DNA of 56,987 nucleotides, taken from the IMG/VR virus record IMGVR_UViG_3300029305_009261, one strand, 5' to 3'. Each line of letters opens with the position of its first letter. The stretch's first letter is position 1. The stretch comes from an uncultured virus (IMG/VR IMGVR_UViG_3300029305_009261). Lineage: Duplodnaviria > Heunggongvirae > Uroviricota > Caudoviricetes. Of the stretch, positions 44,106-56,921 are shown piece by piece. The notes below the pieces were generated by a model. It saw only the letters and a program-made list of their open reading frames with translations, ran no database searches and was not told the origin of the DNA. The position numbers and the translations under genes are program-made.

Positions 44106-44795
44106 ATGAATAAATTACAAAAATATGAACTATTGCATGGAACACTATATACATATGGAGGGGCTTTAAAAGAAAAAGAAATTCCAATACCAGAAGAAAT
44201 TGATTGTGTGGAAGATATTTGTATTTATGCGAAAGAACAACAGCTTTCTCTATATTACTGGCCTCAGGAAGATATTTTAGGATATATGGAAGAATGCTAT
44301 GTTACTAGAATTGCAGAAAGATATAATCTTACATTAAATCCAGAACCATTTTTTGAATATGTAAATGGAGAAAAAATTGTTCCGTTTCCTGAAAAATTAA
44401 CTCCACCTCCGGTAGAAGAATCAATTGCTGTACATACGATTCGGTTAGACAAAGATAATGAATTATTTTGTATTGGAAGTAAAAGCGCTATTGAAAAGCT
44501 TCAGAGTCGGAAGAAAAGAGATTTCATTTCTTTAGTAATTTTTCTTACGAAACATAATATTTATTGTGGAATACAATGTACTAATTCAAAAAATTTAATT
44601 CAAATTCCAGAAGTATCTATGGATACACTATATGGAAATGGCTTAATTGTAGACGAACAGTTATTTGTAGAGGCTATGATACTCTCTGATTTAGAAAAAT
44701 CATACAAAGGGTTAGATATTTTACAAATGACAAAAGAAGAATTAGATGAATTGGTTAAAAATACATGGTGGAATACTAAATTTAAAATAAAATAA
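44106..44795 (+). CDS. hypothetical protein (plus strand)
   Basis: AGGAGG RBS before ATG 44106; bidirectional terminator at ~44804-44858. Confidence 0.7.
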   Translation: MNKLQKYELLHGTLYTYGGALKEKEIPIPEEIDCVEDICIYAKEQQLSLYYWPQEDILGYMEECYVTRIAERYNLTLNPEPFFEYVNGEKIVPFPEKLTPPPVEESIAVHTIRLDKDNELFCIGSKSAIEKLQSRKKRDFISLVIFLTKHNIYCGIQCTNSKNLIQIPEVSMDTLYGNGLIVDEQLFVEAMILSDLEKSYKGLDILQMTKEELDELVKNTWWNTKFKIK

Positions 44796-44858
44796 TCATG
44801 ACAAATAAAAAACACTTGCCACAATTTCTAAAAACGGAACAGGACAAGTGTTTTATTT

Positions 44859-45254
44859 TTAATATTTTTTAAACATATAATAAACGTCGTTTTTACATAC
44901 CCAATAGACTTCTTCTCCAATTCTATAAGAATAATTTCTTCCTAAATAAGCATCCATACTTGAAAATGTATATTCTGAATCTTTAAGTTTTACAGTAGAA
45001 GAATCAATTAGCTTTGTAATTGTTGAAACACCACATTTTTGAGGCTTAAAAAGTGTTTCTATAATGATACTAAAACTAGCGAACTGGAAAGCACATGCAA
45101 TAAATCCTAAAAGGACTTCTATAAAAATAGGGATATTAACACAATGTAATAAAAACAAAGCAAGTAAAGAAGCACAGAGAACTAAAAACGTATTTTTCAG
45201 TTTATGTTGAATAAATAATTTATATGTTTTGTGATTGGTAATAATTTGTAACAT
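44859..45254 (-). CDS. 2-TM membrane protein
   Basis: AGGAG RBS. Confidence 0.6.
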   Translation of the reverse strand: MLQIITNHKTYKLFIQHKLKNTFLVLCASLLALFLLHCVNIPIFIEVLLGFIACAFQFASFSIIIETLFKPQKCGVSTITKLIDSSTVKLKDSEYTFSSMDAYLGRNYSYRIGEEVYWVCKNDVYYMFKKY

Positions 45255-45296
45255 AAAAAGAACTCCTTAATAACAATTTTATAGATTACTACTACC

Positions 45297-45326
45297 TATT
45301 AGCTTATTTTTGGTTTAAGGTTTCGG
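45297..45326 (-). promoter_or_regulatory. element-specific promoter-like motif, copy 7
   Basis: CCGAAACCTTAAACCAAAAATAAGCTAATA. Confidence 0.8.
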
Positions 45327-45342
45327 CTTTTCATATTGATAG

Positions 45343-45414
45343 TGTCCCGTGAAGGAATCGAACCCTCATCAAAGCGTTAGAAGCGCCTTGTACTATCCAT
45401 TATACTAACGGGAC
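45343..45414 (-). tRNA. tRNA-Arg(UCU)
   Basis: Cloverleaf; anticodon loop CTTCTAA. Confidence 0.9.
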
Positions 45415-45418
45415 ATAG

Positions 45419-45492
45419 AGACAATGGTGGGATTCGAACCCACGAATGCCGGAGTTGCAGTCCGGAGCGTTAAACCACTTCGCCACATTGTC
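45419..45492 (-). tRNA. tRNA-Cys(GCA)
   Basis: Loop CTGCAAC. Confidence 0.9.
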
Positions 45493-45512
45493 ATATTCCA
45501 TAATAGGGGGAG

Positions 45513-45585
45513 CGGCCCTTACCGGACTTGAACCGATACCAATGGAGTCAAAGTCCATTGCACTAACCAGTTATGCTAAAGGGCT
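45513..45585 (-). tRNA. tRNA-Gln(UUG)
   Basis: Loop CTTTGAC. Confidence 0.9.
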
Positions 45586-45590
45586 ATAAG

Positions 45591-45662
45591 CAGACGAGGA
45601 CAGATTTGAACTGTCGACTGAACTTTCAGAGAGTCCTGTGTTACCAATTACACCACTCGCCT
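45591..45662 (-). tRNA. tRNA-Gln(CUG)
   Basis: Loop CTCTGAA. Confidence 0.85.
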
Positions 45663-45666
45663 ATAG

Positions 45667-45739
45667 AGCTGATGACGAGATTCGAACTCGTATATCCCGG
45701 TTTTGCAGACCGGAGCCTTTCCGTATTGGCTACATCAGC
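45667..45739 (-). tRNA. tRNA-Cys(GCA)
   Basis: Loop CTGCAAA. Confidence 0.9.
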
Positions 45740-45743
45740 ATAG

Positions 45744-45828
45744 CGTTTGCGGAGGGATTCGAACCCTCGGTGCTGTTACACACACTTCCTTAGCAGGGAA
45801 GTACCATAAACCACTCGGACACGCAAAC
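45744..45828 (-). tRNA. tRNA-Ser(GCU)
   Basis: Loop CTGCTAA, long variable arm. Confidence 0.9.
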
Positions 45829-45865
45829 ATATATATATATAAAGTTATTGTTATATAGCAATAAA

Positions 45866-45952
45866 CGCTTACGACAGGATTCGAACCTGTGAGGCTTTAT
45901 AGGCCCACCTGATTTCCAATCAGGCTCCTTAATCCATCTCGGTCACGTAAGC
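45866..45952 (-). tRNA. tRNA-Ser(GGA)
   Basis: Loop TTGGAAA, long variable arm. Confidence 0.9.
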
Positions 45953-45958
45953 ATATAG

Positions 45959-46045
45959 CGGTACATATAGGACTCGAACCTATAAAGCTTTTTACGGCTA
46001 TGCCAGTTTTCGAGGCTGGTGCCTTTCCAGTTAGGCTAATGTACC
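45959..46045 (-). tRNA. tRNA-Ser(CGA)
   Basis: Loop CTCGAAA, long variable arm. Confidence 0.85.
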
Positions 46046-46052
46046 AAATAAG

Positions 46053-46192
46053 CGATAGATTAGGGATTCGAACCCCAATGCCGATACGAGCCGACTATAA
46101 CGGACGCCTTTTTACTCCTACGGAGCAACCAATCTCCGTTGTCTTAAACTACGGTTTTCGGGACCGATGCAATACCATTCTGCCAACCTACC
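46053..46192 (-). tRNA. 140-nt Ser(CGA)-like tRNA with ~73-nt variable region
   Basis: Acceptor GGTAGGT/ATCTATC-G, D arm, loop CCCGAAA, T arm TGGGG-TTCGAAT-CCCTA. Confidence 0.65.
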
Positions 46193-46202
46193 ATTTTTCA
46201 CA

Positions 46203-46247
46203 TAAAAAATAGAGCTATCATAAGATTATACCTCTTACAATAGCTCC
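46203..46247 (-). terminator. intrinsic terminator (putative attenuator) before the Ser/Cys/Gln/Arg cluster
   Basis: GAGCTATTGTAAGA-loop-TCTTATGATAGCTC followed by TATTTTTT. Confidence 0.75.
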
Positions 46248-46299
46248 GTATAAAAACGAGAAATATTGCTAATACAACAAAACGTTAGTAGTTTTGTTG

Positions 46300-46428
46300 T
46301 CAAGAATAATATAAACATATGATTATAGATTTTTTGTATTTAGTTGCACGGCAAATAGAGTCACTCTGAGAAGACTGACTTTGACATCTACACTGTGAAC
46401 TTCTTGAAATTATAATCATAGTTTTCAT
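46300..46428 (-). CDS. putative leader peptide rich in Ser/Gln/Cys/Arg
   Basis: AAAGGA RBS; MKTMIIISRSSQCRCQSQSSQSDSICRATKYKKSIIICLYYS. Confidence 0.7.
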   Translation of the reverse strand: MKTMIIISRSSQCRCQSQSSQSDSICRATKYKKSIIICLYYS

Positions 46429-46452
46429 TGTTTTAGTTTCCTTTCTTTAGCA

Positions 46453-46884
46453 TTATATTGATAATTCGATATTTTCTTTATTTTTTATGTTTTCGTGTAG
46501 TTCTGCTAAGGATTTTGGGACACCTTTTATAGTCCATTCTTCTGGTAAAAACCGAAGAAAAACTTCTGCAAGTTCTTGCTCTTCGTAAAGACAATTATAG
46601 GAATTTACGTCGAGATAATTTGGAGTAGAATCCTCATAATCCACATAATCATCCATATCAGGAAAAACATTTCGGATAAAATAGTCTTTGTCTTTTATTG
46701 GAGTGTAAAAACTAAACTCAAAATAAAGACCATTATACCTTACTTCTATTTCATAAAAGTCATTTTCATACTCTTTTTGTTTTTCTTTGTTATTCTTAAA
46801 AATTTCATACCATACAGATTTTTCTGTTTTGTGTAAGAGGATAATTTCTTTTCTTGAACGCAAATGATTTATTAAAGTTTCCAA
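46453..46884 (-). CDS. hypothetical protein
   Basis: AGGAGG RBS, TTG start. Confidence 0.65.
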   Translation of the reverse strand: METLINHLRSRKEIILLHKTEKSVWYEIFKNNKEKQKEYENDFYEIEVRYNGLYFEFSFYTPIKDKDYFIRNVFPDMDDYVDYEDSTPNYLDVNSYNCLYEEQELAEVFLRFLPEEWTIKGVPKSLAELHENIKNKENIELSI

Positions 46885-46956
46885 TTAAGTTTCTCCTCCT
46901 AATAGTGTTTTTCTGTCATAGTTATGATAAAATTAAAGTTTTGCAATAATCTTAAG

Positions 46957-47034
46957 TACCCCTTGCAGGAGTCGAACCTGCAGAAAGAACTGCGGTTCTG
47001 AGCCGCAGGTGTATGCCATTTCCACCAAAGGGGC
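46957..47034 (-). tRNA. tRNA-Leu(CAG), short variable arm
   Basis: Loop CTCAGAA. Confidence 0.85.
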
Positions 47035-47038
47035 ATAA

Positions 47039-47125
47039 TCTCCCGACTGGGACTTGAACCCAGAGGTTTGTGGTTGCCCGTCCTGCGTCCTTAGCGCAGC
47101 GCCTATGCCATTCGGCTACCGGGAG
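47039..47125 (-). tRNA. tRNA-Leu(AAG)
   Basis: Stem CTGCG/CGCAG, loop CTAAGGA. Confidence 0.85.
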
Positions 47126-47129
47126 AAAA

Positions 47130-47211
47130 TACACATGACGAGATTTGAACTCGTATGGATTGCTCCCATAGGGTTTGAGCCTACTACGTCTGCCAGTTCC
47201 GTCACATGTGC
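47130..47211 (-). tRNA. tRNA-Leu(CAA)
   Basis: Loop CTCAAAC. Confidence 0.9.
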
Positions 47212-47212
47212 G

Positions 47213-47300
47213 TACACCCAGAGGGGGTCGAACCCTCACCCTACTTTAATTTCGGAACGGAGCTTAAATCCGTCGTGTCTTCCTGTTCCACCATGGGTGC
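47213..47300 (-). tRNA. tRNA-Leu(UAA)
   Basis: Loop TTTAAGC. Confidence 0.9.
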
Positions 47301-47354
47301 ATATTTTGTTTTATTAAGTTGTCTAAGGTTACATAATCGTAAGAGTCGCAACAT
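47241..47354 (-). CDS. putative Leu leader peptide reading into tRNA-Leu(UAA)
   Basis: MLRLLRLCNLRQL... with AAAGGACGGGTG upstream. Confidence 0.65.
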   Translation of the reverse strand: MLRLLRLCNLRQLNKTKYAPMVEQEDTTDLSSVPKLK

Positions 47355-47384
47355 ATTTTGCACCCGTCCTTTCTTATTTTTTTT

Positions 47385-47933
47385 TTATTGTTGTTGTTGT
47401 ACTAATTCTACAAAATTATATGGAATGATATAAATATAGTCAACTTGTGTAACTCCTAGTATTTGTACTTTATTGTCTTCGATTGGGAGTTTACAAGTAG
47501 AAATCATCATAACTTCTTCGCCTAATGGAACATTGAGTAATAATTTACTTCCATTACTAGTAGTTCTTCTTTGACCATCCCATTCATAAACGATATGTAA
47601 TCGTTCACTTTCTCCATGTCTTTTTAAAAGAGCTACATCAATAAGTTTTACCGGATATATTTCTTCTTGATTGTTTTGTAACACCTCTAACCATCGCATA
47701 TATTCATTTTTCTTACAAATTTTCGATGGGAAATAGATAAAAGTAATCCCTATAATAATGGAAATTATAATAGTTCCTACTAATTCAGAAGGGGTTGTTA
47801 TTGCACTTCCTATTGCAAGGATAATACCTAATAAACCAAGGCCACGAAAGACATTCATAATAAACTTTATAATTTTGGCTTCTTGTTTTTTTGACTGAAT
47901 CATCAACTTACGTTCTTCCGGATTAAGTTTCAT
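47385..47933 (-). CDS. 2-TM membrane protein
   Basis: AGGAG RBS. Confidence 0.65.
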   Translation of the reverse strand: MKLNPEERKLMIQSKKQEAKIIKFIMNVFRGLGLLGIILAIGSAITTPSELVGTIIISIIIGITFIYFPSKICKKNEYMRWLEVLQNNQEEIYPVKLIDVALLKRHGESERLHIVYEWDGQRRTTSNGSKLLLNVPLGEEVMMISTCKLPIEDNKVQILGVTQVDYIYIIPYNFVELVQQQQ

Positions 47934-47954
47934 GAAATTTTGACAGGCTCCTTT

Positions 47955-48482
47955 CTAAGAAGAAAACTTCTTTTTATCATTCTTTGTTTTTTCTTTTAAT
48001 CGAATAATATTAAAAAACGAAACAGCTAATATCATTATGTCAAAAAATGATGACACATATAATCCAATAGAAAAATCATGAATAAACCAAAGTATCATAT
48101 TAAAACATATTACATATCGTAACGATTGTGCTGATTTCAATATATAAGAACAAGTCGTATATATAACACCAGCTAATATAGGTAAGATACCGATAAATCC
48201 ATTTTTATTAAGAGATAGTCCTAGAACAACCAAAATTACGGCAAATAAGCCATTAATAATTGGTGTGTTCTTATTTTTTGCGGTTAAATAATTTCGAAAT
48301 CCGGCAATTGCATTAGAAACTGCTGCTGAATAACCACCAATAAATAGACATGCAATGAAGTTAAACAAACAGTCGCAAATTTGGACTAATAACATTTTGT
48401 CTTTCTTTTTTGCAAAGGTGCTATACGCTAAAAACGAACAACCAATAGCCGAAAAAATATTTGCTAATATTACCACAGACAA
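47955..48482 (-). CDS. YgjV-like inner membrane protein
   Basis: Multi-TM; K...L..Q, GGYSA...N....RN, W..HD. Confidence 0.7.
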   Translation of the reverse strand: MSVVILANIFSAIGCSFLAYSTFAKKKDKMLLVQICDCLFNFIACLFIGGYSAAVSNAIAGFRNYLTAKNKNTPIINGLFAVILVVLGLSLNKNGFIGILPILAGVIYTTCSYILKSAQSLRYVICFNMILWFIHDFSIGLYVSSFFDIMILAVSFFNIIRLKEKTKNDKKKFSS

Positions 48483-48508
48483 TCTCCTTGTATTTATTTA
48501 TCGGTGAA

Positions 48509-48589
48509 AGGCAGGACTAGGAGTCGAACCTAGTATCTCAACGGGTTATGAGCCCGGAATGGTTTATGTATCCGTTCCACTCTCCTGCA
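48509..48589 (-). tRNA. initiator-type tRNA-Met(CAU) with enlarged D loop
   Basis: GGG/CCC anticodon stem, loop CTCATAA, 1-72 mismatch. Confidence 0.7.
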
Positions 48590-48591
48590 AG

Positions 48592-48664
48592 TACCAGAAA
48601 ACAGGTTTGAACTGTTGACATTGGTCATATGAGGACCATGCTCTACCAACTGAGCTATTCTGGT
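48592..48664 (-). tRNA. tRNA-Met/Ile2(CAU)
   Basis: Loop CTCATAT. Confidence 0.85.
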
Positions 48665-48726
48665 ATAAAAACCGGTAATGACTATGCCAAAACCGGGGGT
48701 TGTATCTACTCGTGGTAGTACAAGTG

Positions 48727-48797
48727 AGCCGATAATAGGAATCGAACCTACATCAACTGTTTACGACACAGCCGCCCTACCGTTGGGCTATATCGGC
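48727..48797 (-). tRNA. tRNA-Thr(CGU)
   Basis: Loop GTCGTAA. Confidence 0.85.
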
Positions 48798-48829
48798 AAA
48801 TATCCATATTAAAGTAGTATGGAGATATT

Positions 48830-49174
48830 TTAAAATTGATATAACATAACCTCAAAAACTATCATACTACCAAAAAGAATAGATAAAAGTATTCCGAGTT
48901 TATAAATATTATATATTATCGGATTAAACATTTCAGAGGGGTTATTTTTCTTGATAAAAACCCTCTTTCTGGTGCGCAAGCACTTCCCTGCGACAGTATT
49001 GCGATACGTCGTATTATTATATTTATATACAAATGTTGTATTATACAAACCTTTAGTGGTATTTGGTCCATACATAAGATGTTGTATTCCAGTATGTTGA
49101 AAACAATCGGCAATTACGCCTACATGGGTTTTGCGAATGCTAATTATCTGTTTTAAAAAGAAAATCAACATCAC
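48830..49174 (-). CDS. membrane protein
   Basis: ORF between tRNAs; start uncertain. Confidence 0.55.
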   Translation of the reverse strand: MMLIFFLKQIISIRKTHVGVIADCFQHTGIQHLMYGPNTTKGLYNTTFVYKYNNTTYRNTVAGKCLRTRKRVFIKKNNPSEMFNPIIYNIYKLGILLSILFGSMIVFEVMLYQF

Positions 49175-49244
49175 TATGCAAACAACAAAAGTTAAAATAT
49201 ACTCGAATATAAACCAACCTCTCTTTATGAAAATTTGTTGTTAA

Positions 49245-49316
49245 AGCCTCATGTGTGAATCGAACACACGATAACTGGGTTACAAATCCAGCGCACTACC
49301 ACTGTGCTAATGAGGC
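49245..49316 (-). tRNA. tRNA-Thr(UGU)
   Basis: Loop TTTGTAA. Confidence 0.9.
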
Positions 49317-49319
49317 AAA

Positions 49320-49601
49320 TTATTTCTTTTTTGTATTTTTTATAAACATAATAAAGAAGAATATAGTTAAAGCAAATGGAATTCCAACAAACATTATTGT
49401 TAAAACTATAGCCCCGGGAGTTAAAAGAACAGCAAGAACCTGTCCAAACTCATCTACAGGGGAGAGTAAATTTTTAACCACGTTAATGGTCATTGGGATG
49501 AATTCTTTTCCAAGAGATATCGTTGTAATACCCAAAAATAAGCTAACAACAAAATAACAAAATGTCTTAATATTGGATTTATTATCTTTGTCAGAATTCA
49601 C
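49320..49601 (-). CDS. small membrane protein
   Basis: AGGAG RBS, GTG start. Confidence 0.6.
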   Translation of the reverse strand: MNSDKDNKSNIKTFCYFVVSLFLGITTISLGKEFIPMTINVVKNLLSPVDEFGQVLAVLLTPGAIVLTIMFVGIPFALTIFFFIMFIKNTKKK

Positions 49602-49632
49602 AATTTATTCTCCTTATACTTATGTTATTAAA

Positions 49633-49704
49633 TACCGCTAAAAAGAATCGAACTTTCATCCTCTGGTTCGTAGCCAGATACTCTATCCATTAAGCTATAG
49701 CGGT
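49633..49704 (-). tRNA. tRNA-Arg(ACG)
   Basis: Loop CTACGAA. Confidence 0.9.
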
Positions 49705-49823
49705 AAAGCATGGGTGTTAGGACTTGAACCCAAAACTCTGAGGTTGGAGCTCAGCATGTTGCCAATTACACCACACCCACATATTGTTTTATGAGGTTTA
49801 GTCCATCGCCATCGTTTTGTCAT
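49695..49823 (-). CDS. putative Trp/Arg/Thr leader peptide reading through tRNA-Trp
   Basis: AAAGGAG RBS; MTKRWRWTKPHKT... Confidence 0.65.
   Translation of the reverse strand: MTKRWRWTKPHKTICGCGVIGNMLSSNLRVLGSSPNTHALPL
49709..49780 (-). tRNA. tRNA-Trp(CCA)
   Basis: Loop CTCCAAC. Confidence 0.9.
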
Positions 49824-49968
49824 AGTAGTTATCTCCTTTCTTCTTGAATTGTTTTAACAATTTACAACTGCCACAATGATTTCTGTTTTTGCAGAACCAA
49901 CAATTATCCGTATCCAACCAAAACCATCTTGGTGGTTGTGGTCGTTGTTTTCTTTTTGCTTTTCCCAT
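49798..49968 (-). CDS. small basic Cys-rich protein
   Basis: MGKAKRK...CWFC...CGSC with AAGGA RBS. Confidence 0.6.
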   Translation of the reverse strand: MGKAKRKQRPQPPRWFWLDTDNCWFCKNRNHCGSCKLLKQFKKKGDNYYDKTMAMD

Positions 49969-49997
49969 ATTGACATTCCTTTTTATATTATAGCCAG

Positions 49998-50071
49998 TAC
50001 GCCCGGTCAGATTCGAACTGACAATCACTGCTTATAAGGCCAGCCGCAACGTACCACATCACCTCGGGCGC
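49998..50071 (-). tRNA. atypical tRNA-Ile(UAU)
   Basis: Perfect acceptor and T arm, loop CTTATAA, irregular D arm and bulged anticodon stem. Confidence 0.7.
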
Positions 50072-50110
50072 TTATTTTATAAGAACCTCTGGTATTCGTA
50101 TTCGTTTCAT
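50072..50110 (-). CDS. putative Ile(AUA) leader peptide
   Basis: AGGAG RBS; MKRIRIPEVLIK, all three Ile codons ATA; stop codon abuts the tRNA 5' end. Confidence 0.7.
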   Translation of the reverse strand: MKRIRIPEVLIK

Positions 50111-50265
50111 ACTTTATCTCCTATTTATTATCGGTTTTTATTTTTCTTTGGACATTCGCATTTGCTATAATAATCGCATTTGGAACATTTGCATTTCTTA
50201 CACCAGTATGAAATTATTTTTCCAATAATACAATGTTTTAACAAGTGAATGTCTCCTTAGTTTTT

Positions 50266-50493
50266 TTAGTATTTTCCCCATGTTAAAGAATTAAAATGGG
50301 AAGTTGTTAGCTTTTTATAATCACAGTCTTTAAGTAAGATATCATTATGCCTACGGATTTGACGATTGTATAATTTCTTACAACGTCGATTGCCTTCTTT
50401 CACTTCTCCTTGTAAAGTAGTTGCATTTTTCTTACTTTTTTGCCAGTTATGTCTTTTGGTGTGAGCATTCCCGGAAAAAGGTTTTTGTTGCAT
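50266..50493 (-). CDS. small basic protein
   Basis: AGGAGG RBS. Confidence 0.6.
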   Translation of the reverse strand: MQQKPFSGNAHTKRHNWQKSKKNATTLQGEVKEGNRRCKKLYNRQIRRHNDILLKDCDYKKLTTSHFNSLTWGKY

Positions 50494-50520
50494 AAAACTA
50501 CCTCCTAAAAACTGTTTTAG

Positions 50521-50593
50521 TTGGGACTGACGGATTTGAACCGACGACCACCTCCGTATCAGAGAGGCACTCTACCAACTGAGTTAAATCCCA
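50521..50593 (-). tRNA. tRNA-Ile(GAU)
   Basis: Loop CTGATAC. Confidence 0.9.
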
Positions 50594-50597
50594 ATAA

Positions 50598-50671
50598 AGC
50601 ATCATACCGGATTCGAACCGGCGTCATTCCTCTTCGGCAAAGAGGTGCCATAGCCATTAGGCGAATGATGC
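50598..50671 (-). tRNA. tRNA-Gly(GCC)
   Basis: Loop TTGCCGA. Confidence 0.9.
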
Positions 50672-50677
50672 ATAATA

Positions 50678-50749
50678 AGCGGATAAAGGGAATCGAACCC
50701 TCATCTTCAGAGTGGAAGTCTGATATCATAGCCGTTAGACCATACCCGC
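50678..50749 (-). tRNA. tRNA-Gly(UCC)
   Basis: Loop CTTCCAC. Confidence 0.9.
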
Positions 50750-50900
50750 ATAAGTAATAACACATGAAATAGTATATAATTTCTTGAAGTGCCTTAGTCC
50801 TGCTTGGAAGGTCCCAAGATGTCCAGTGGACATCTGTTATGGGAGGACCGAAGTGGTAACGCAGACGGCGTGTTATCCGCTGACACTACACATGCATATT

Positions 50901-51045
50901 ATATCGCTAACCTTATAATGACGGATAATTTCACATGCGTATGCGAACCTTCAGAGCCGTCCTAGCCTACGCTGTTCTTTTGTCCGTTATTCAGCCCTGC
51001 AGTGCCTTACGGTGGCATAGGTTGTCTTGCTTCGGTTAGCAATAT
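50901..51045 (-). ncRNA. unidentified structured RNA
   Basis: GC-richer, ORF-free; ends pair (ATATTGCTAACC/GGTTAGCGATAT) with G-U only on the minus strand. Confidence 0.5.
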
Positions 51046-51048
51046 AAA

Positions 51049-51123
51049 TGATTCCAGTGGGACTTGAACCCAACATTTTAGCCTTGAAAGGGCTACGTCC
51101 TGACCGATTTAGACGATGGAACC
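51049..51123 (-). tRNA. tRNA-Glu(UUC)
   Basis: Loop CTTTCAA. Confidence 0.9.
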
Positions 51124-51127
51124 GCAA

Positions 51128-51200
51128 TAGTCTCTACGGGAATTGAACCCAGTATTTACTCCTTGAGAGGGAGTCGTCATAACCATTCGACCAAGAGACC
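51128..51200 (-). tRNA. tRNA-Glu(CUC)
   Basis: Loop CTCTCAA. Confidence 0.9.
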
Positions 51201-51203
51201 ATA

Positions 51204-51692
51204 TTATGATTTCTTAACAACAATATCTCGAAGATATCCACAAGATTTTACATAGGTTTTTACATAAGAAAAACCACAATTTAATAATGCAGATTTTGAT
51301 GCAAAATTTTCTGGATGGACAGTGGCTAAAAGAATATCATAACTCGGGCATTCTTTAAGTGCAAAATTGATAAGTTTTTTCGCAATTCCTTGGTTTCTAT
51401 ATTCGGGAAGTACCATTAAACGTCCAAGTTCAACAACTTTTTCATTGTTAAGTTCTAATTGTTTTGCACTTTCTTCAAATTCATGTGGATGAAAGAATAA
51501 ACCTACTGCGCCAATTAAATAATTATCTTTGAATATGCCATAAAAATGTGTCCATTCTATATCAAAGAAATGTTGTTTTGAAATAGAGTCTATAGGAAGC
51601 CAATATTCTTTATTTGATAAAGAGCTCTCTATTTTTTGAATTAGTAAATCCAATTGGGCTTTGTCAGATAAAAATATTGGTCTAATTTCCAT
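51204..51692 (-). CDS. GNAT N-acetyltransferase
   Basis: V.PEYRNQGIA, V.P.N.AS......GF. Confidence 0.85.
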   Translation of the reverse strand: MEIRPIFLSDKAQLDLLIQKIESSLSNKEYWLPIDSISKQHFFDIEWTHFYGIFKDNYLIGAVGLFFHPHEFEESAKQLELNNEKVVELGRLMVLPEYRNQGIAKKLINFALKECPSYDILLATVHPENFASKSALLNCGFSYVKTYVKSCGYLRDIVVKKS

Positions 51693-51752
51693 AAATCACT
51701 CCTGATTATTTTATATGAGAACGCTTCCGTATGATGACAGACGATAGGTGTT

Positions 51753-52097
51753 TTAATACAATGCAGTACTATGCTCATAATTATAAAGCTCTTTTGCATC
51801 ATAAAATGGTTGTTCTTTACGCAAAGCATTTGCATAACTATTTTCTACAAGGAAGTTTACTGCTTCTGCATTTTCTTCATACCATGTTTCTCCAAAAGCA
51901 TCTTTTACTTTTTTGATAAGACATTCCTGTGCTTGATACAAATCTATTTGATTCTCAATAGCGTCTATAACCTCACGAATAATGAATTTTATTGCTTTCG
52001 AGCTACCCTTAATTTCGAATCTGGCATTTAATGCACTTTCGTATTTTACTGGGTTAGGAACTTCATCAAATGATGTAAGCATAGCATTCAACCTCAC
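51753..52097 (-). CDS. hypothetical protein, paralog family D
   Basis: Paralog of 42436..42750. Confidence 0.65.
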   Translation of the reverse strand: MRLNAMLTSFDEVPNPVKYESALNARFEIKGSSKAIKFIIREVIDAIENQIDLYQAQECLIKKVKDAFGETWYEENAEAVNFLVENSYANALRKEQPFYDAKELYNYEHSTALY

Positions 52098-52127
52098 TTA
52101 ATATAGAAATTGTTTTAATTACATCAA

Positions 52128-52388
52128 CAGGAAACTTTTTCATAAACTCTTCCAAAGTTGCAGTTTGGTGTTCTTGATACTTTTTTTGCTGTATGTTTCC
52201 CAAATAATGTTTTTTTTATTTTTATCATATCAACCGGAAACGAATTTACAATATCAGATTAGCAGTCTGGTTGTTAATTAAGTTGCTGTATGTTTCCAAG
52301 ATATATAAGTTTTTTACATACACATGAAGCGATTATACTTGGCAGTTTAAAAGACTGTTGTTTAATAGATTGCTGTTTGCTTCACATA
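52128..52388 (-). ncRNA. three tandem ACAGCAA-motif RNAs carrying anticodon-stem-loop mimics (Cys, Ser, Lys)
   Basis: Each has a closing stem, ACAGCAA and a hairpin with a 7-nt loop CTGCAAC / CTGCTAA / CTTTTAA. Confidence 0.65.
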
Positions 52389-52394
52389 TGTAAG

Positions 52395-52469
52395 TCGGAA
52401 TGACACGACTCGAACGTGCAATGTCTCGGTCCCAAGCCGAGCGGATTAGCCAAATTATCCTACATCCCG
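52395..52469 (-). tRNA. tRNA-Pro(UGG)
   Basis: Loop CTTGGGA. Confidence 0.9.
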
Positions 52470-52475
52470 AAATGA

Positions 52476-52547
52476 TGCTTGTATTGAGATTCGAACTCAA
52501 ATCAGTCAGATTAAGAGTCTGCTATTTTACCATTAAACTACACAAGC
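52476..52547 (-). tRNA. tRNA-Lys(CUU)
   Basis: Loop CTCTTAA. Confidence 0.9.
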
Positions 52548-52551
52548 GTAG

Positions 52552-52624
52552 TGCGCCATTTGGGGCTCGAACCCAAGACCTATCGGTTAAAAGCCGATTA
52601 CTCTACCAACTGAGTTAATGACGC
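52552..52624 (-). tRNA. tRNA-Lys(UUU)
   Basis: Loop CTTTTAA. Confidence 0.9.
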
Positions 52625-52628
52625 TTAT

Positions 52629-52664
52629 TTACTTAGGTTTTCGTGTTTTACGTTTTCGTTTCAT
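52629..52664 (-). CDS. putative Lys/Pro leader peptide
   Basis: AAAAGGA RBS; MKRKRKTRKPK, stop 4 nt before tRNA-Lys. Confidence 0.65.
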   Translation of the reverse strand: MKRKRKTRKPK

Positions 52665-52679
52665 AATAATTCTTCCTTT

Positions 52680-52943
52680 TTAATTGTTTTTCTTATGATA
52701 TATAAATACCAAAACAGCAAATGTTGTATTCAATATCATATCTACGATTGCTCCAATATAGAGAATTAACTCTTGATTTGTTGTAAATAAATAAATTACC
52801 CAACAAAAGATTCCAATCAATGATAAAATAGTTGAGCCAAGGCTATAATCAGAGCTTGATTTTGTTTTTATAAGTTTGATTATTTTTGGAAAATATTCCA
52901 TGTAAACAATAATGCAATATGTAATATAAAACAGCTTTCCCAT
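52680..52943 (-). CDS. PQ-loop/SemiSWEET-like small membrane protein
   Basis: FPKIIK..KTKSS.D.S, W..Y, 3 TMs. Confidence 0.7.
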   Translation of the reverse strand: MGKLFYITYCIIVYMEYFPKIIKLIKTKSSSDYSLGSTILSLIGIFCWVIYLFTTNQELILYIGAIVDMILNTTFAVLVFIYHKKNN

Positions 52944-52962
52944 ATAAGCTCCTGATAACTAT

Positions 52963-53481
52963 TTAATTTTTACCTCTAATTGCTATGTTTAAGTTTAATA
53001 AAGGGCTACCATCTGTCTGAAATAATGGGACGCAGATATTAGCTGCATACTGTCTGGACATAACGACATTTCCTCTTGCAACTGTTGGTGGAGTAATGTC
53101 AATCAATCGGTTCTGTATACTAAAAATAGTTGCTGCATTTCCCATAATCATATTTCCCAATTCGGAAATTGCACTCATTGCCATTTCAGTTAATTCCGGA
53201 ATTTCAAAGCCCATCATCATTTTACTGGCAAGTAGTTTTGCACTCTCCTCATTGATTTCTAAAATAACTTGACCTTCTAGTTGTCCGGTAACTCCAAGCA
53301 TTATCAAAACTGCATTGTCGGTAAAAGAAGTGTCTTTGATACAAGGTTTTCCAACTTTAGATTTAATCTGACTGACAGTTTCAATGATATTCATTGCTGC
53401 AGTTAAAAATGGGTTGATGGTATTTACGTCTACAACAGAAGTCTGTGACTTCTGATTGTCATGGATACTCGACTGTGGCAT
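52963..53481 (-). CDS. cheX: chemotaxis phosphatase CheX
   Basis: INPF, GVTG...G, SA.SELGNMI.GNA, DITPP. Confidence 0.9.
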   Translation of the reverse strand: MPQSSIHDNQKSQTSVVDVNTINPFLTAAMNIIETVSQIKSKVGKPCIKDTSFTDNAVLIMLGVTGQLEGQVILEINEESAKLLASKMMMGFEIPELTEMAMSAISELGNMIMGNAATIFSIQNRLIDITPPTVARGNVVMSRQYAANICVPLFQTDGSPLLNLNIAIRGKN

Positions 53482-53558
53482 GTAAATTCTCCATTTCTTC
53501 TGTATTTTATTTTGTAGGGTAAATGATTCTTGTGCCTGTAAGAATACTTTATCCTAAG

Positions 53559-53633
53559 CGACTCTAACGGGATTCGAACCCGTGGTCTCCGGCGTGACAG
53601 ACCGGCGCTTTAAGCCAGCTAAGCTATAGAGCC
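53559..53633 (-). tRNA. tRNA-Asp(GUC)
   Basis: Loop CTGTCAC. Confidence 0.9.
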
Positions 53634-53751
53634 ATATATAGGGAGTTGACGGGACTCCCCGGCACCTTATGTTGTCATCATTAGGTGTGTAATAAATAAG
53701 CGTCTGGTAAGTGTCCTGTGTTGTCGTACTACAACTTATTTTTTACAAAAA

Positions 53752-53833
53752 TCCGTGAGGTTGGACTCGAACCAACGATGTTTCTTTGTGGGGGTTTTAC
53801 AGACCCTTGTCTTCGCCGCTAGACTACTCACGG
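53752..53833 (-). tRNA. tRNA-Tyr(GUA)
   Basis: Loop CTGTAAA; C1-G72. Confidence 0.9.
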
Positions 53834-53872
53834 TCAATTAAAATCATTTACTTTGCTTTTGTTGAAAACAAA

Positions 53873-53957
53873 TCCGTGGAGTAGGACTTGAACCTACAAG
53901 AGCCGAAGCCATCGATTTTACAGACCGAACCGCTACCAGTTACGGGACTATCCACGG
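53873..53957 (-). tRNA. tRNA-Tyr(GUA)
   Basis: Loop CTGTAAA; C1-G72. Confidence 0.9.
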
Positions 53958-53999
53958 GAATTTCTTTTCGTAATAATAATAATAATAATCAGAATCCAT
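53940..53999 (-). CDS. putative Tyr/Asp leader peptide overlapping the tRNA-Tyr 5' end
   Basis: AAAGGAG RBS; MDSDYYYYYYEKKFPWIVP. Confidence 0.75.
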   Translation of the reverse strand: MDSDYYYYYYEKKFPWIVP

Positions 54000-54048
54000 A
54001 ATATTTATCTCCTTTGTTTATTTTTTTGTAGTTCATTAAGAACTTAAT

Positions 54049-54118
54049 GTGACCTAAGAGAATCGAACTCTTGAGAACGGAGCCACAATCCGCCGTTTTA
54101 CCACTAAACTAAAGCCAC
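54049..54118 (-). tRNA. tRNA-His(GUG)
   Basis: Loop TTGTGGC; G-1:C73. Confidence 0.9.
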
Positions 54119-54120
54119 AG

Positions 54121-54193
54121 TGCAGGATGAGAGGTTCGAACTCCCGACTTCCAACTTGTAAAGATGACACTCTCCCGGCTGAGTTAATCCTGC
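54121..54193 (-). tRNA. tRNA-Val(UAC)
   Basis: Loop TTTACAA; weak anticodon stem. Confidence 0.8.
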
Positions 54194-54308
54194 ATTCTTA
54201 AGCACCTTAAACTTAATACGCTATATATTAACCCTCTTTATAGATAAGGTGACGAGAGTTATACAGTTCTAGGAGATAACCTTATCATTTATCATCCTAA
54301 GGTTTTAG

Positions 54309-54380
54309 TGGACACGATGGGATTCGAACCCAATCTTTCTTCTTGCAAGGAAGACGCTTTCCCAGTTAAGCTATCGGCCC
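54309..54380 (-). tRNA. tRNA-Ala(UGC)
   Basis: Loop CTTGCAA; G3-U70. Confidence 0.9.
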
Positions 54381-54384
54381 ATAG

Positions 54385-54457
54385 TAGGAATTGGAAGGAA
54401 TCGAACCCTCGTCTCCTGTCTCCACGACAGGCGCTATATCCATTAAGCTACAACCCT
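54385..54457 (-). tRNA. atypical tRNA-like gene (undetermined anticodon)
   Basis: Normal D and T arms; anticodon hairpin CCTGTC-GTGGA-GACAGG lacks U33; bulged acceptor. Confidence 0.6.
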
Positions 54458-54471
54458 ATAGATTTTTTTGA

Positions 54472-54647
54472 TGCGGATATTGAGGATTCGAACACTCGAA
54501 GACATTTCATAAAACAACATTGTCTGTCCATAGACTCCGGATTTTCTATGTTAGATATTGTTGTAGTTATTAACAATACCAAACGCTGTTTTCCTACTAC
54601 TGTCAGCTACTCACCGTAGCCTGCTTTGGCCGCTTGCATATCACCGC
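54472..54647 (-). ncRNA. 176-nt tRNA-like RNA with ~100-nt insertion in the variable region
   Basis: GCGG/CCGC-A acceptor, class II-type D arm, GGCTAC-GGTGA-GTAGCT hairpin, GTTCGAATC T loop. Confidence 0.6.
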
Positions 54648-54694
54648 TTATTATATTATCACAAGTAATGAACAAGGCATCACCTGTAATAAAA

Positions 54695-54774
54695 TGCCTC
54701 GTGTTCGAGTCGAACGAACTTCTCTGGATTTTCAGTCCAGCGCATGTATTAATTACCGAATCTGCTTACGAGGC
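54695..54774 (-). tRNA. tRNA-Phe(GAA), enlarged D loop
   Basis: Loop CTGAAAA. Confidence 0.85.
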
Positions 54775-54824
54775 TTGGTAAAGTCTGTTTCTTCTGCTTT
54801 ACCAAAACTAAATCGTTTCTTCAT
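54753..54824 (-). CDS. putative Phe leader peptide overlapping the tRNA-Phe 5' end
   Basis: AAAGGA RBS; MKKRFSFGKAEETDFTKPRKQIR. Confidence 0.6.
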   Translation of the reverse strand: MKKRFSFGKAEETDFTKPRKQIR

Positions 54825-55103
54825 TTTTCAAAGTTCCTTTCCAGTTAAAATTAAAAAGCTGTAACTATACGATTATCTTCATAAAAGAATTCATATTGGC
54901 TTTTTGTTTGTTTGACATTTAAAAGTTTTCCACGAAAGGAATATCTTTTTCCATTTTGAGAATATTTGAAGCCAATATTTTCATTTTTTATCATAGAAAA
55001 ATTTAACTTCATAATGATATCCTCCATATAATTATTTTTATCTCTTATCTCCTGCTTAAATTAGGGGTGCCTGTTCCATAGAAACAGGAGATTTTTGATA
55101 AAG

Positions 55104-55143
55104 CGCTGCGAGTTGGGCTCGAACCAACAACCTACCGGTTAAC
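55104..55143 (-). pseudogene. 3' half of a tRNA-Asn starting at the anticodon
   Basis: GTTAACCGGTAGGTTGTTGGTTCGAGCCCAACTCGCAGCG; no matching 5' half found. Confidence 0.7.
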
Positions 55144-55828
55144 CTATGGTTGATTGGGTTATTTCTGTGTTTATAATAGTTTCTTGAGTTATCAAGCCTT
55201 CATGGATTTCTCTATGACAGTTTGCACAAACACAAATACATTTGTCTAATTCTACCTTTAACCGTTCCCATGATTTTGTAGTTCCAGCATGAGAAAAACC
55301 AAAGTCTTTTTCTTCTGGGTCTTTATGATGGAATTCAAGAGCCCCTATGCATTTATTATATCCACAAAGAAGGCATTTGCCACCTTTGTATTCTACAGCC
55401 ATTTCCTTCAACTTTCTGCGTCTCTTAGTAACGCTTTTAACGTTTCTTGCTCGACGCTTTTGCAATCTATAGCTATCTGTTGTTTTGTGAGGGCTCCAAT
55501 ATAAATTAGAAGCAGACAAGTTGTCTGGATTTTCATCTACAAATAAAACAAAGGGTAGATTTTTAGGATTTTCTAAAAAATTTTCTGCAACAGCCCTATG
55601 TAATATGATGCTTTTGCGTTGTCGTCTTTTGCCAAGGCTAACGTGAAAAACATAATAAGATGTTCCCCTATTTTCCGAAGCATTGATTTTATATGTTTTT
55701 AAAATTTTCTTAGAGTTTTTTCTTCTAATGTGGCCTAAATTACTAATTTCGTAATTTTCGTAAATATTATTTTGATATATTAAAGGTTTCCATTCTTCTT
55801 GAAAATCAATAATACCATTCATCTCCAA
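55139..55828 (-). CDS. NUMOD4/HNH homing-endonuclease-like protein
   Basis: EEWK...YEISN.G.IR, HR.VA..F; C-terminal C..CGY...LEFHH.DP..K...CANCHREIH. Confidence 0.85.
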   Translation of the reverse strand: MEMNGIIDFQEEWKPLIYQNNIYENYEISNLGHIRRKNSKKILKTYKINASENRGTSYYVFHVSLGKRRQRKSIILHRAVAENFLENPKNLPFVLFVDENPDNLSASNLYWSPHKTTDSYRLQKRRARNVKSVTKRRRKLKEMAVEYKGGKCLLCGYNKCIGALEFHHKDPEEKDFGFSHAGTTKSWERLKVELDKCICVCANCHREIHEGLITQETIINTEITQSTIG

Positions 55829-55868
55829 TCATTTTGTCTTTAGTCGATGGGTGGTGCCTACACCCAAA

Positions 55869-55939
55869 CGGGCCGGGAAAGAGTTGAACTTTCCTATCCA
55901 GCTTAACAGGCTGGCGTTCTACCGATGAACTACCGGTCC
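55869..55939 (-). tRNA. tRNA-Asn(GUU)
   Basis: Loop CTGTTAA. Confidence 0.9.
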
Positions 55940-55983
55940 AAAACATTGTAATATCGAGCTACGAATCCATATTTTTATGTAAT

Positions 55984-56059
55984 AAAAAATCGCCTATTAT
56001 CAGCAACCACAAAGAAAATTTTCTCTATCCTTGTTGGTTATTTGCTGTTATAGACGATT
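55984..56059 (-). terminator. long hairpin plus U-tract upstream of the first tRNA (putative attenuator)
   Basis: AATCGTCTAT...ATAGGCGATT-TTTT with internal CAGCAA/TTGCTG pairing. Confidence 0.55.
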
Positions 56060-56128
56060 GCAATTTACCTATGTATAAAAGGCATTCTATGATGTTTTTT
56101 ATAGTACTTGTGCCTGTAAGCATCTATT

Positions 56129-56308
56129 TCAACATCGTAACAATCGTCTTTCGAGTGTTTGTTCTAACCCTCTATGTTCTTCTGTAATGACGGAATTATC
56201 CCAATAACAATCGAGACTAGGGGCATAAGGGCGAACGAAACTAAACATATTAAAATTATATGTTTTCGCTGCAGCCTGATTCTGTTTTGCCACTAATGAC
56301 TTCATCAT
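56129..56308 (-). CDS. 59-aa first ORF of the tRNA operon (putative master leader)
   Basis: AAAGGA RBS; MMKSLVAKQNQAAAKTYNFNMFSFV...; uses all 20 amino acids. Confidence 0.55.
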   Translation of the reverse strand: MMKSLVAKQNQAAAKTYNFNMFSFVRPYAPSLDCYWDNSVITEEHRGLEQTLERRLLRC

Positions 56309-56355
56309 GGTTTTTAATTCCTTTCATTTTATTTGTAAGTTTTTTATCTTACACT

Positions 56356-56385
56356 TATTAGCTACTTTTTGGTTTAAGTTCTCGG
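56356..56385 (-). promoter_or_regulatory. element-specific promoter-like motif, copy 8 (head of tRNA operon)
   Basis: CCGAGAACTTAAACCAAAAAGTAGCTAATA. Confidence 0.8.
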
Positions 56386-56414
56386 TAAATTCTTACCGAA
56401 GTGTTTTAAATAAA

Positions 56415-56530
56415 TAAAAAAAGAAAGTTTCTGATTTTCCGCTGACCATTTTCCCCTAAAATCATCCCCCGACGCTTTTAGAAAAACATTACATATAGGT
56501 CAGACGAAAGACAGGCACTTCCTTCATCTA
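56415..56530 (-). ncRNA. putative sigmaA-driven small RNA with an AGUGCCUG-loop hairpin
   Basis: Follows a strong promoter; AGATGAAGGA-AGTGCCTG-TCTTTCGTCT hairpin, second CTGACC/GGTCAG stem, U-rich end. Confidence 0.55.
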
Positions 56531-56535
56531 CAGGT

Positions 56536-56564
56536 AGTATATCACACTTTAAAAAGAATGTCAA
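56536..56564 (-). promoter_or_regulatory. sigmaA promoter
   Basis: TTGACA-17 bp-TATACT with extended TG and A/T-rich UP element. Confidence 0.8.
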
Positions 56565-56641
56565 CACTTTTTTTAAAATTTTTTTTTATTTTTTTAAAGA
56601 TTTTTTTGCTATAATAGTTGGTCACAATCCAATCCAAAAAA

Positions 56642-56716
56642 AATGGGTTACGAATGGGTTATTTTAAATAATTAACCCAATAAAAAATCAAGGGCTTTAT
56701 CCCTAAAACCCTTGAC
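56642..56716. repeat. putative attachment-site arm repeats and inverted repeat just 3' of rpmF
   Basis: AATGGGTTA x2 direct (56642, 56653), inverted TAACCCA, and TCAAGGG/CCCTTGA hairpin. Confidence 0.55.
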
Positions 56717-56736
56717 TTTACTGACTTTGCTGTTAA

Positions 56737-56919: not shown

Positions 56920-56921
56920 GA

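Follow-up and report, generated by a model that had tools for sequence, protein, structure and literature searches.

In the leader-peptide transcription attenuators of bacterial amino-acid operons and of pheST, among them trpL, hisL, pheL, thrL, leuL, ilvL and pheM, a short open reading frame (ORF) is led by a Shine-Dalgarno (SD) site and enriched in codons for the monitored amino acid or tRNA, and the speed of the ribosome along it is the signal; thrL, for example, begins MKRISTT.... T-box riboswitches bind the tRNA directly, without translation, and Barth et al. are said to have found in 2021 that short Cys-codon ORFs of mycobacteria respond to the cleavage of tRNA-Cys by VapC4. The purpose of phage tRNA arrays is still debated between codon compensation and escape from tRNA-cleaving defences (PMC10264068), and the mycobacterial Cys attenuators are the subject of a preprint (bioRxiv 10.1101/834739). 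Here we analyse IMG/VR record IMGVR_UViG_3300029305_009261, a stretch of 56,987 nucleotides from an uncultured virus of the Caudoviricetes (57 kb, G+C about 33%; the whole stretch is called the window hereafter), in which seven mini-ORFs stand in front of groups of tRNA genes and are spelled to a large extent in the codons that those tRNAs read. We give a probability of about 0.55 to the reading, made from sequence, that the seven are translated, cis-acting leader peptides which would gauge the decoding speed of the codons read by the adjacent tRNAs and thereby tune tRNA output.

Like the classical attenuators, the seven leaders, named F, Y, K, I, W, L and S, have a ribosome-binding site and a start codon of their own (7/7), are enriched in the codons to be monitored and show an MK(R)-like start. 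They are unlike them in three respects: the genes behind them are tRNAs and not biosynthetic or synthetase genes; six of the seven units lack both terminator and antiterminator, and their ends fall on or within the tRNA (K and I just before it); and the sensor is made from CGA-X pairs, X being the sensed codon, and not from runs alone. With the mycobacterial Cys-codon ORFs they would share the principle that the loss of one tRNA species, including loss to a tRNase, changes the expression of genes in cis, except that the genes in question are cysteine and stress genes of the bacterium in that case and, as proposed, replacement tRNAs of a phage in this one. As in T-boxes, a codon-like specifier would sense the state of one tRNA and control the same amino-acid system; unlike T-boxes, the elements in the window carry an SD site, an ATG and an in-frame stop codon, and an Rfam scan of positions 44000-56987 (E <= 1) returned the tRNAs and two weak unrelated matches, with no T-box and no other cis-regulatory family. 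The first-pass annotation of this DNA had supposed that such logic was undescribed for tRNA arrays, which holds for the full-text literature searched, where no published account of leader peptides controlling tRNA genes, with or without a terminator, was found (subscription journals lay outside the scope of the search). The closest published logic is that of classical attenuation and of the mycobacterial Cys ORFs, and what would be new here is ribosome-mediated sensing applied to tRNA genes, in a form that is mostly terminator-free and tRNA-abutting and that uses CGA-X sensor pairs.

Seven codon-matched leaders in one tRNA array

The source of the array is a giant gut phage, and almost every gene in the window lies on the minus strand. 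ARAGORN predicts 35 tRNA genes, which all lie on the minus strand, from 45342 to 55940, and Rfam finds 36, the additional one being a partial tRNA. The same DNA is present in several metagenome runs from animal faeces, and the I and W leaders are covered by diverged contigs in two metagenome runs, with 7-30 differences over 49365-50327. All seven mini-ORFs reported by the first-pass annotation (Table 1) translate as given from the minus strand, and each has an AGGAG-type site, that is, AAGGAG, AGGAG or AAGGA located 7-14 nt before the ATG, with SD site and ATG in frame. The leaders are 11-42 codons long. Their reported geometry was borne out at each unit: the F, Y, W and L leaders run into the first tRNA, K and I stop 4 and 0 nt before it, respectively, and only the S leader (1/7) is separated from its tRNAs by a terminator. 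Counted from tRNA base 1, the stop codons of the six abutting leaders begin at +20, +16, -7, -3, +84 and +58, taken in the order F, Y, K, I, W and L. In five of these six units the leader RNA is essentially unstructured, the exception being F.

The codon content described earlier is also as stated. All three Ile codons of the I leader are ATA, a codon that accounts for 23% of the Ile codons in the genes of the window, and the core of the S leader, with 18 of 20 residues being S, Q, C or R, is indeed present; two of the three Arg codons of this leader are AGA, ahead of tRNA-Arg(UCU). The tRNAs downstream are likewise those described, by ARAGORN and Rfam, with two departures: tRNA-Phe is missed by ARAGORN, and the supposed fourth tRNA-Ser is a 140-nt tRNA-like gene of ambiguous identity.

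The match between leaders and tRNAs is specific to the reading frame. When the codons preceding the tRNA start were scored by standard wobble rules against each leader's own downstream cluster, 47 of 120 in-frame codons were cognate over the seven leaders (49 if the ambiguous tRNA-like gene is counted as Ser-UGA), while the two remaining frames yielded 8 of 115 and 6 of 114. The comparison with shuffled leader/tRNA pairings, which had been suggested as a check, was run on the seven leaders of the window: the actual pairing is the single best of all 5040 permutations (mean 13.0, sd 7.3). For the six tRNA-abutting leaders alone (29/79 cognate), it is likewise the single best of 720 pairings. Taken one by one against the codon usage of the window, the leaders give binomial P values from 0.04 (F) and 0.01 (W) down to 5e-8 (S), with P = 3e-13 for the 18/20 core of S. 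The leaders have not been drawn from a large pool, since the minus strand between 44.8 and 57 kb contains just 19 ORFs of <= 60 aa with an SD match of >= 5 nt, and most of those that are not leaders lie inside genes or tRNAs.

Five of the leaders have the shared form M-(K)-R(CGA)-X-R(CGA)-X, whereas the Tyr and Ser/Gln/Cys/Arg leaders use runs; this grammar is not mentioned in the first-pass annotation. Within the five R-X leaders CGA makes up 9 of 11 Arg codons, as against 21% in 61 ORFs of the window (P = 2.9e-5), and in nine of nine cases the codon directly after CGA is a sensor codon (ATA, AAA, TGG, CTC, TTA or TTT) cognate to the downstream tRNA. When codon order was shuffled within each leader, none of 100,000 trials reached nine CGA-sensor adjacencies. 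In yeast, elongation is slowed by inhibitory codon pairs; a higher tRNA concentration brings partial rescue, and the ribosomes are left with empty A sites (Tesina et al., bioRxiv 10.1101/755652). Given that behaviour, we infer by analogy that a CGA-X pair may make the dwell of the ribosome at X report the concentration of tRNA-X: with CGA in the P site, read by I:A wobble, decoding of the next codon would be unusually dependent on the concentration of its tRNA, so that CGA-X would act as a sensitised sensor. The likeness to the inhibitory CGA-NNN pairs of yeast lies in a 5′ wobble-read codon, after which the following codon is decoded slowly and in a way that depends on how much of its tRNA is present. 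The difference is that the yeast work showed the pairs as a source of stalling on eukaryotic ribosomes and not as a means of regulation.

Table 1. Leaders, tRNA groups and associated elements of the array, with positions in the window; the peptides of leaders F, Y, K and I are written up to their stop codon.
Feature	Position	Strand	Basis and remarks
F leader, MKKRFSFGKAEETDFTKPRKQIR (starts MKKRFSFGK)	54753..54824	-	SD AAGGA; stop TAA inside the tRNA-Phe D-loop
Hairpin within F leader, stem TTGGTAAAG/CTTTACCAA	54775..54805	-	Predicted fold; adjoins tRNA-Phe base 1
tRNA-Phe(GAA), non-canonical, enlarged D-loop	54695..54774	-	Manual parse; partial Rfam match 54766-54703, 30.2 bits; no ARAGORN call
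Y leader, MDSDYYYYYYEKKFPWIVP	53940..53999	-	Translation; SD; before Tyr, Tyr, Asp
tRNA-Tyr(GUA) x2 and tRNA-Asp(GUC)	53558..53957	-	ARAGORN, Rfam; first Tyr just 29 bits in Rfam
K leader, MKRKRKTRKPK	52629..52664	-	Translation; SD; stop 4 nt before tRNA-Lys
tRNA-Lys(UUU), tRNA-Lys(CUU), tRNA-Pro(UGG)	52394..52624	-	ARAGORN, Rfam
I leader, MKRIRIPEVLIK	50072..50110	-	Translation; SD; all 3 Ile codons ATA; stop adjoins tRNA base 1
tRNA-Ile(UAU), weak anticodon stem	49997..50071	-	ARAGORN; Rfam 31 bits
W leader, MTKRWRWTKPHKT...	49695..49823	-	Translation; SD; runs through tRNA-Trp into tRNA-Arg
tRNA-Trp(CCA) and tRNA-Arg(ACG)	49632..49780	-	ARAGORN, Rfam
Sigma-70-like promoter, near-consensus TTGACT-17-TATAAT	47415..47443	-	11/12 matches, consensus match only; about 60 nt upstream of L leader
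L leader, MLRLLRLCNLRQL...	47241..47354	-	Translation; alternative GTG start 47363; runs 58 nt into tRNA-Leu(UAA)
tRNA-Leu(UAA), (CAA), (AAG), (CAG)	46956..47300	-	ARAGORN, Rfam
S (S/Q/C/R) leader, 42 codons	46300..46428	-	18/20 consecutive residues S, Q, C or R; 18-20/41 codons cognate to the block downstream
Intrinsic-terminator-like hairpin, 15 bp and T-run	46211..46247	-	Between S leader and tRNA block; arms -20.1 kcal/mol
Long tRNA-like gene (46192-46053), then Ser(CGA), Ser(GGA), Ser(GCU), Cys, Gln(CUG), Gln(UUG), Cys, Arg(UCU)	45342..46192	-	ARAGORN, Rfam

The immediate neighbourhood of the W leader has a further feature. Between tRNA-Ile(UAU) and this leader lies a gene for a 56-aa zinc-ribbon protein of the CxxC...CxxC type (49798-49968, minus strand), which is rich in Trp (3 W, including RWFW) and carries the ribosome-binding site of the W leader in its 3′ end.

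Leaders in a distant relative and in an unrelated phage

A scan of IMG/VR for an SD site followed by ATG and five Tyr codons gave 88 stretches, only one of which has a tRNA-Tyr behind it. This is IMGVR_UViG_3300011005_000632 (labelled G001), a complete phage genome of 331,944 bp with terminal repeats and 48 Rfam tRNA matches in its array. Its homologue of the Y leader, MEGEYYYYYRNMRR, is followed by Tyr, Tyr and Asp, the same tRNA order as in the window. A homologue of the F leader, MKRFSTGKESDFTKPRQLNR, precedes a tRNA-Phe(GAA) that is a normal tRNA in this phage, and a homologue of the K leader, MKRKRKVRKQTYTCL, precedes tRNA-Lys(UUU); both have AAGGAG 9 nt upstream. Leader and tRNA together are about 72% identical between the two phages, the F unit being 72% identical over 137 nt by blastn. 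Since only 3 of 93 ORFs of the window have a tblastn match anywhere in G001, the two phages are distant, yet the leaders persist.

What has been kept between the phages is the sensor part, namely the Tyr run, the CGA-AAA-CGT-AAA-NNN-CGA-AAA string and CGA-TTT, while the rest of the peptides diverges. CGA again dominates the Arg codons of the leaders (4/5, versus 7% in G001 genes; P = 1.1e-4). In the window, the Y and K leaders have the secondary matches pointed out earlier, to Asp and to Pro, respectively; G001 lacks them, with Asp replaced by Glu and Pro by Gln. Conservation of the primary match only, to the first tRNA, fits control of the first tRNA. In G001 the leaders are placed between tRNAs, in the orders Asn-[F]-Phe-[Y]-Tyr-Tyr-Asp and Lys-[K]-Lys, and so cannot be what is left of protein genes. 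The stop codons of the three G001 leaders begin at +20, +9 and +8 of the tRNA. The two phages also have in common the hairpin stem GGTAAAG/CTTTACC of the F leader, with loops that differ (7 vs 13 nt) and z-scores of -1.7 and -2.4. ARAGORN found no tRNA-Trp or tRNA-Ile(UAU) in G001, and no W, I, L or S leader was found there.

A second case is given by Caulobacter phage phiCbK (JX100813, 46500-53500), in which annotated rho-independent terminators stand directly before tRNA blocks and behind codon-matched mini-ORFs. One leader, MSKTYRQFVRQIQVVRNIR... (unannotated, about 51341-51439), is followed by a terminator and then by Phe-Val-Ile-Ile-Val-Gln-Gln; 10 of its 31 codons are cognate to its own block versus 3 for the other block. 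A segment of it, GGGCGGGCC, is able to pair with the 5′ arm of the terminator and would make a plausible antiterminator. The other, gp083, is rich in S, L, P and K, with 23 of 45 codons cognate versus 1, and is followed by a terminator and Pro-Pro-Lys-Lys-Leu-Leu-Leu-(Ala)-Ser-Ser. An unrelated, cultured phage thus bears out the general idea, its units being of the classical leader-plus-terminator form. The units of both phages have a mini-ORF spelled in the codons of the tRNA block behind it, and the S leader with its terminator has the same layout as the phiCbK units. The alternative pairing between leader and terminator arm is evident in phiCbK, however, and not convincing in the S unit, and the other six units of the window have no terminator.

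Searches by nucleotide similarity, protein and pattern returned little else. A megablast of positions 45000-56987 against phages gave only a 57-nt tRNA-Lys match to Bacillus phage PBC2, and a more distant blastn of positions 53550-54850 gave 112 records, all of them single-tRNA matches with coverage <= 7%. Related-locus searches in IMG/VR brought no relatives when made with the CheX-like protein, a 182-aa protein and ribosomal protein L32 of the window, and only G001 itself when made with a 621-aa G001 protein. Protein homologue searches with the W-leader ORF and the 182-aa protein gave self-matches only, the latter protein being present on 16 contigs. As for patterns, an SD site with ATG AAA CGA NNN CGA occurs in 103 IMG/VR stretches, none with a tRNA within 600 nt, and the K-leader pattern in two, namely G001 and one chance match without a tRNA. 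The Tyr run with CTGTAAA was found in at least 117 stretches of metagenome contigs, with no tRNA-Tyr among the matches listed, and the F-hairpin pattern in 90 stretches of GTDB genomes, none of them beside a tRNA.

How the leaders might act

For the output step of such sensors, we regard occlusion of the tRNA 5′ end by ribosomes as the most likely candidate. When tRNA-X is plentiful, repeated initiation would send ribosomes onto or into the acceptor and D region and delay both the folding of the tRNA and its cleavage by RNase P. When tRNA-X is scarce, a ribosome would stall at codons 4-7 and cover the start site too, upon which traffic would end and the tRNA would fold and be released. The position of the stop codon, at -7 to +84, implies that a terminating ribosome would lie over both the RNase P site and the 5′ acceptor strand (6/6 abutting leaders in the window and 3/3 in G001), while a ribosome stalled at the early sensor codons (2-7) would not cover the RNase P site but would cover the start site. 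The first-pass annotation had suggested that ribosomes either cover the tRNA 5′ end or allow termination when tRNA is plentiful. The stop positions speak for the first branch; for the one leader with a terminator, no antiterminator was found, as described below. The S/Q/C/R leader, with its terminator, would probably act at the level of transcription, as in leader-plus-terminator units. The net logic would be homeostatic, with more phage tRNA being made when codon demand or cleavage of host tRNA outruns supply; phage tRNAs are known to counter tRNA-cleaving defences. A further-reaching version is tentative, and we consider it doubtful as a whole: that ribosome traffic off a codon-matched leader gates tRNA folding and RNase P maturation without a terminator, by way of CGA-X sensors, so as to release replacement tRNAs on demand against an AT-rich codon load or a host anticodon nuclease, the units being members of a widespread, as yet unpublished class of phage tRNA-supply sensors.

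Several points weigh against the sensor reading or against occlusion as its output. The CGA-pair effect invoked here comes from work on yeast, not on bacteria. We know of no precedent for ribosomes gating RNase P, and the folding and cleavage of tRNAs are fast, which may leave occlusion too little time to have an effect. Sensor codons in some cases come late (AAG at codon 11 of K, ATA at codon 11 of I), and stalling at these would itself place a ribosome over the tRNA 5′ end. Only the first tRNA would come under control by occlusion, yet the L, S and W leaders carry codons of later tRNAs as well. In the S unit, none of the ribosome masks tried, on the sensor codons or on the stop codon, kept the terminator (-20.1 kcal/mol) from forming. 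The strongest pairing of its 5′ arm with an upstream segment (2:3) reaches -9.5 versus -20.1 kcal/mol, and pairing of the leader with segment 2 (-4.6) is weaker than the shuffle mean (-7.4). Neither folds under masks nor comparison of pairing with shuffles thus revealed an antiterminator for the S leader; a promoter-like site also overlaps the terminator hairpin. G001 is the sole relative found, and the same script detected no codon-matched leaders in five other tRNA-bearing phage stretches, namely PBC2 (19 tRNAs), LR745206 (huge, 635 kb; 31), T5 (23), Goe3 (5) and MT835556 (a gut phage fragment; 6). Within the window itself, no such leader precedes nine other tRNA groups (Asn; Pro-Ala; Val-His; Asp; Glu-Glu; Gly-Gly-Ile; Thr; Thr; Met), which agrees with the earlier remark that none was seen for Glu, Gly or Ile(GAU).

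A general model in which the leader pairs with the tRNA and misfolds it was set aside, as five of the six minimum-free-energy folds keep the acceptor stem and only that of W loses it.

Other explanations have to be weighed against a sensor that acts through the tRNA 5′ end. It is possible, though in our judgement unlikely, that all seven are classical leader-peptide transcription attenuators, in which a stalled ribosome would flip a switch between antiterminator and terminator, with a cryptic terminator in the abutting cases, formed for instance by the stems of the first tRNA itself. The strong terminator behind the S leader would suit such a mechanism, and so would the phiCbK units, whose leader and terminator allow a plausible 1:2, 2:3, 3:4 arrangement before tRNA blocks. 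In the S unit, though, the antiterminator that attenuation calls for was not found. In six of the seven leaders, with their stop codons at -7 to +84, there is no room for a terminator, and five of those six are essentially unstructured. U-rich tracts do follow tRNA-Tyr#1 and tRNA-Phe in the window, but they are not conserved in G001.

It is rather improbable that the leaders work by stall-dependent stabilisation of the RNA, in which a parked ribosome would shield the leader-tRNA precursor from 5′-to-3′ decay or endonucleolytic cleavage, so that more of it is matured when the tRNA is scarce. This would resemble the ermC-type stalled-ribosome or strong-SD stabilisers of Firmicutes, and it goes well with the strong SD sites, with the unstructured leader RNA and with the likelihood of an SD-using, low-GC gut host. 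It would also act on a whole cluster, which fits the L, S and W leaders with their codons of later tRNAs. On the other hand, folded tRNAs are intrinsically stable, and stabilisation leaves unexplained why stop codons sit on the tRNA 5′ end.

We think it very unlikely that the mini-ORFs are not tRNA regulators at all, being instead minigenes like those of lambda bar, which would tie up particular tRNAs as peptidyl-tRNA, basic peptides with a function of their own, or spacer ORFs that keep ribosomes on the RNA, with the codon match as a side effect. They are short, with strong SD sites and basic N-termini, features that would agree with such roles. The bar minigenes, however, have 2-3 codons, as opposed to 11-42 here, and owe their toxicity to the drop-off of peptidyl-tRNA; sequestering a tRNA beside the gene that supplies it would bring no evident benefit. 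CGN codons beside the start are reported to lower expression (PMC2034473), which counts on the same side as the short length. Against this, a peptide function does not predict that X is the amino acid of the next tRNA in seven units, nor that just the sensor part of the peptide is conserved between two phages.

Lastly, a chance or low-complexity artefact of AT-rich spacer is hardly credible: (TAT)n and A-rich runs are common in AT-rich DNA, 87 of the 88 IMG/VR matches to the Tyr-run pattern have no tRNA-Tyr downstream and the enrichments of F and W are weak singly (P = 0.04 and 0.01), but the permutation, frame and codon-order controls contradict it, three leaders are kept in G001, and SD site and ATG are in frame in 7/7.

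Surroundings of the array and implications

The genes of the window are of phage-like and auxiliary kinds, among them those for an NAD synthase, a Sir2 protein, an R2K ATP-grasp protein, a glycosyltransferase, an HNH endonuclease and ribosomal protein L32. The L32 gene (56737-56919, minus strand; Pfam E = 3e-26) lies just upstream of the tRNA array, and a near-consensus promoter-like site with an extended -10 is found at 56564-56536. The HNH/NUMOD4 homing-endonuclease gene (55828-55139, minus strand) comes directly after tRNA-Asn and is followed by a fragment resembling the 3′ half of a tRNA (T-arm GGTTCGAGCCC), within the region 55100-55940. This suggests an endonuclease inserted into or beside a tRNA gene, as in the tRNA regions of T5 and T4. 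Four genes of cellular type are located within the array on the minus strand, at 47955-48482, 52680-52943, 52963-53481 and 51204-51692, and encode, in this order, a YgjV inner-membrane protein, a PQ-loop/SWEET-like half-transporter, a CheX/CheC-like phosphatase and a GNAT acetyltransferase.

The ambiguous tRNA-like gene behind the S leader (46192-46053, minus strand; 140 nt) contains an insertion of about 53 nt, and Rfam extends the gene to this length. It belongs with other expanded tRNA-like genes of 114-140 nt, found in G001 at 155554-155667, 155839-155961, 157167-157301 and 171081-171196. In both phages these genes match the whole tRNA model and have insertions of 40-65 nt, and for the one in the window ARAGORN proposes an intron in the anticodon loop. 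These may be tRNAs that contain an intron or are expanded in some other way.

On the minus strand, two long inter-tRNA gaps are predicted to fold more stably than dinucleotide shuffles, namely the Glu-Gly gap at 50750-51048 (299 nt, 44% GC, z -2.75) and the Phe-Pro gap at 54458-54694 (237 nt, z -3.16). Neither has an Rfam match; they may be stable non-coding RNAs resembling the 'stable RNAs' annotated in the tRNA region of T5. Short non-tRNA stretches are also conserved between the phages: positions 54467-54501 of the window are 97% identical over 35 nt to 160093-160127 of G001 and resemble the T-arm and 3′ acceptor half of a tRNA, and positions 48517-48588 are 82% identical over 72 nt to 144464-144529 of G001. 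In addition, G001 encodes a polynucleotide kinase-RNA ligase fusion (193817-195304; PHROG RNA ligase E = 3e-126, kinase E = 1e-18) and a CCA-adding enzyme (319272-320648; E = 7e-69), which together form a kit for the repair and maintenance of tRNAs, a context in keeping with the proposed sensor reading.

The window thus combines seven units in one array with an evolutionary replicate in G001. The units are small, consisting of about 40-130 nt and one tRNA, and the idea is hence directly testable; other genomes could be searched for such sensors by the simple rule that the CGA-X grammar would supply. If the leaders do sense decoding as proposed, their tRNA-abutting form would add RNA maturation, and not termination, to the outputs of ribosome-mediated sensing, and phages would be seen to monitor decoding species by species, adjusting their own tRNA supply.

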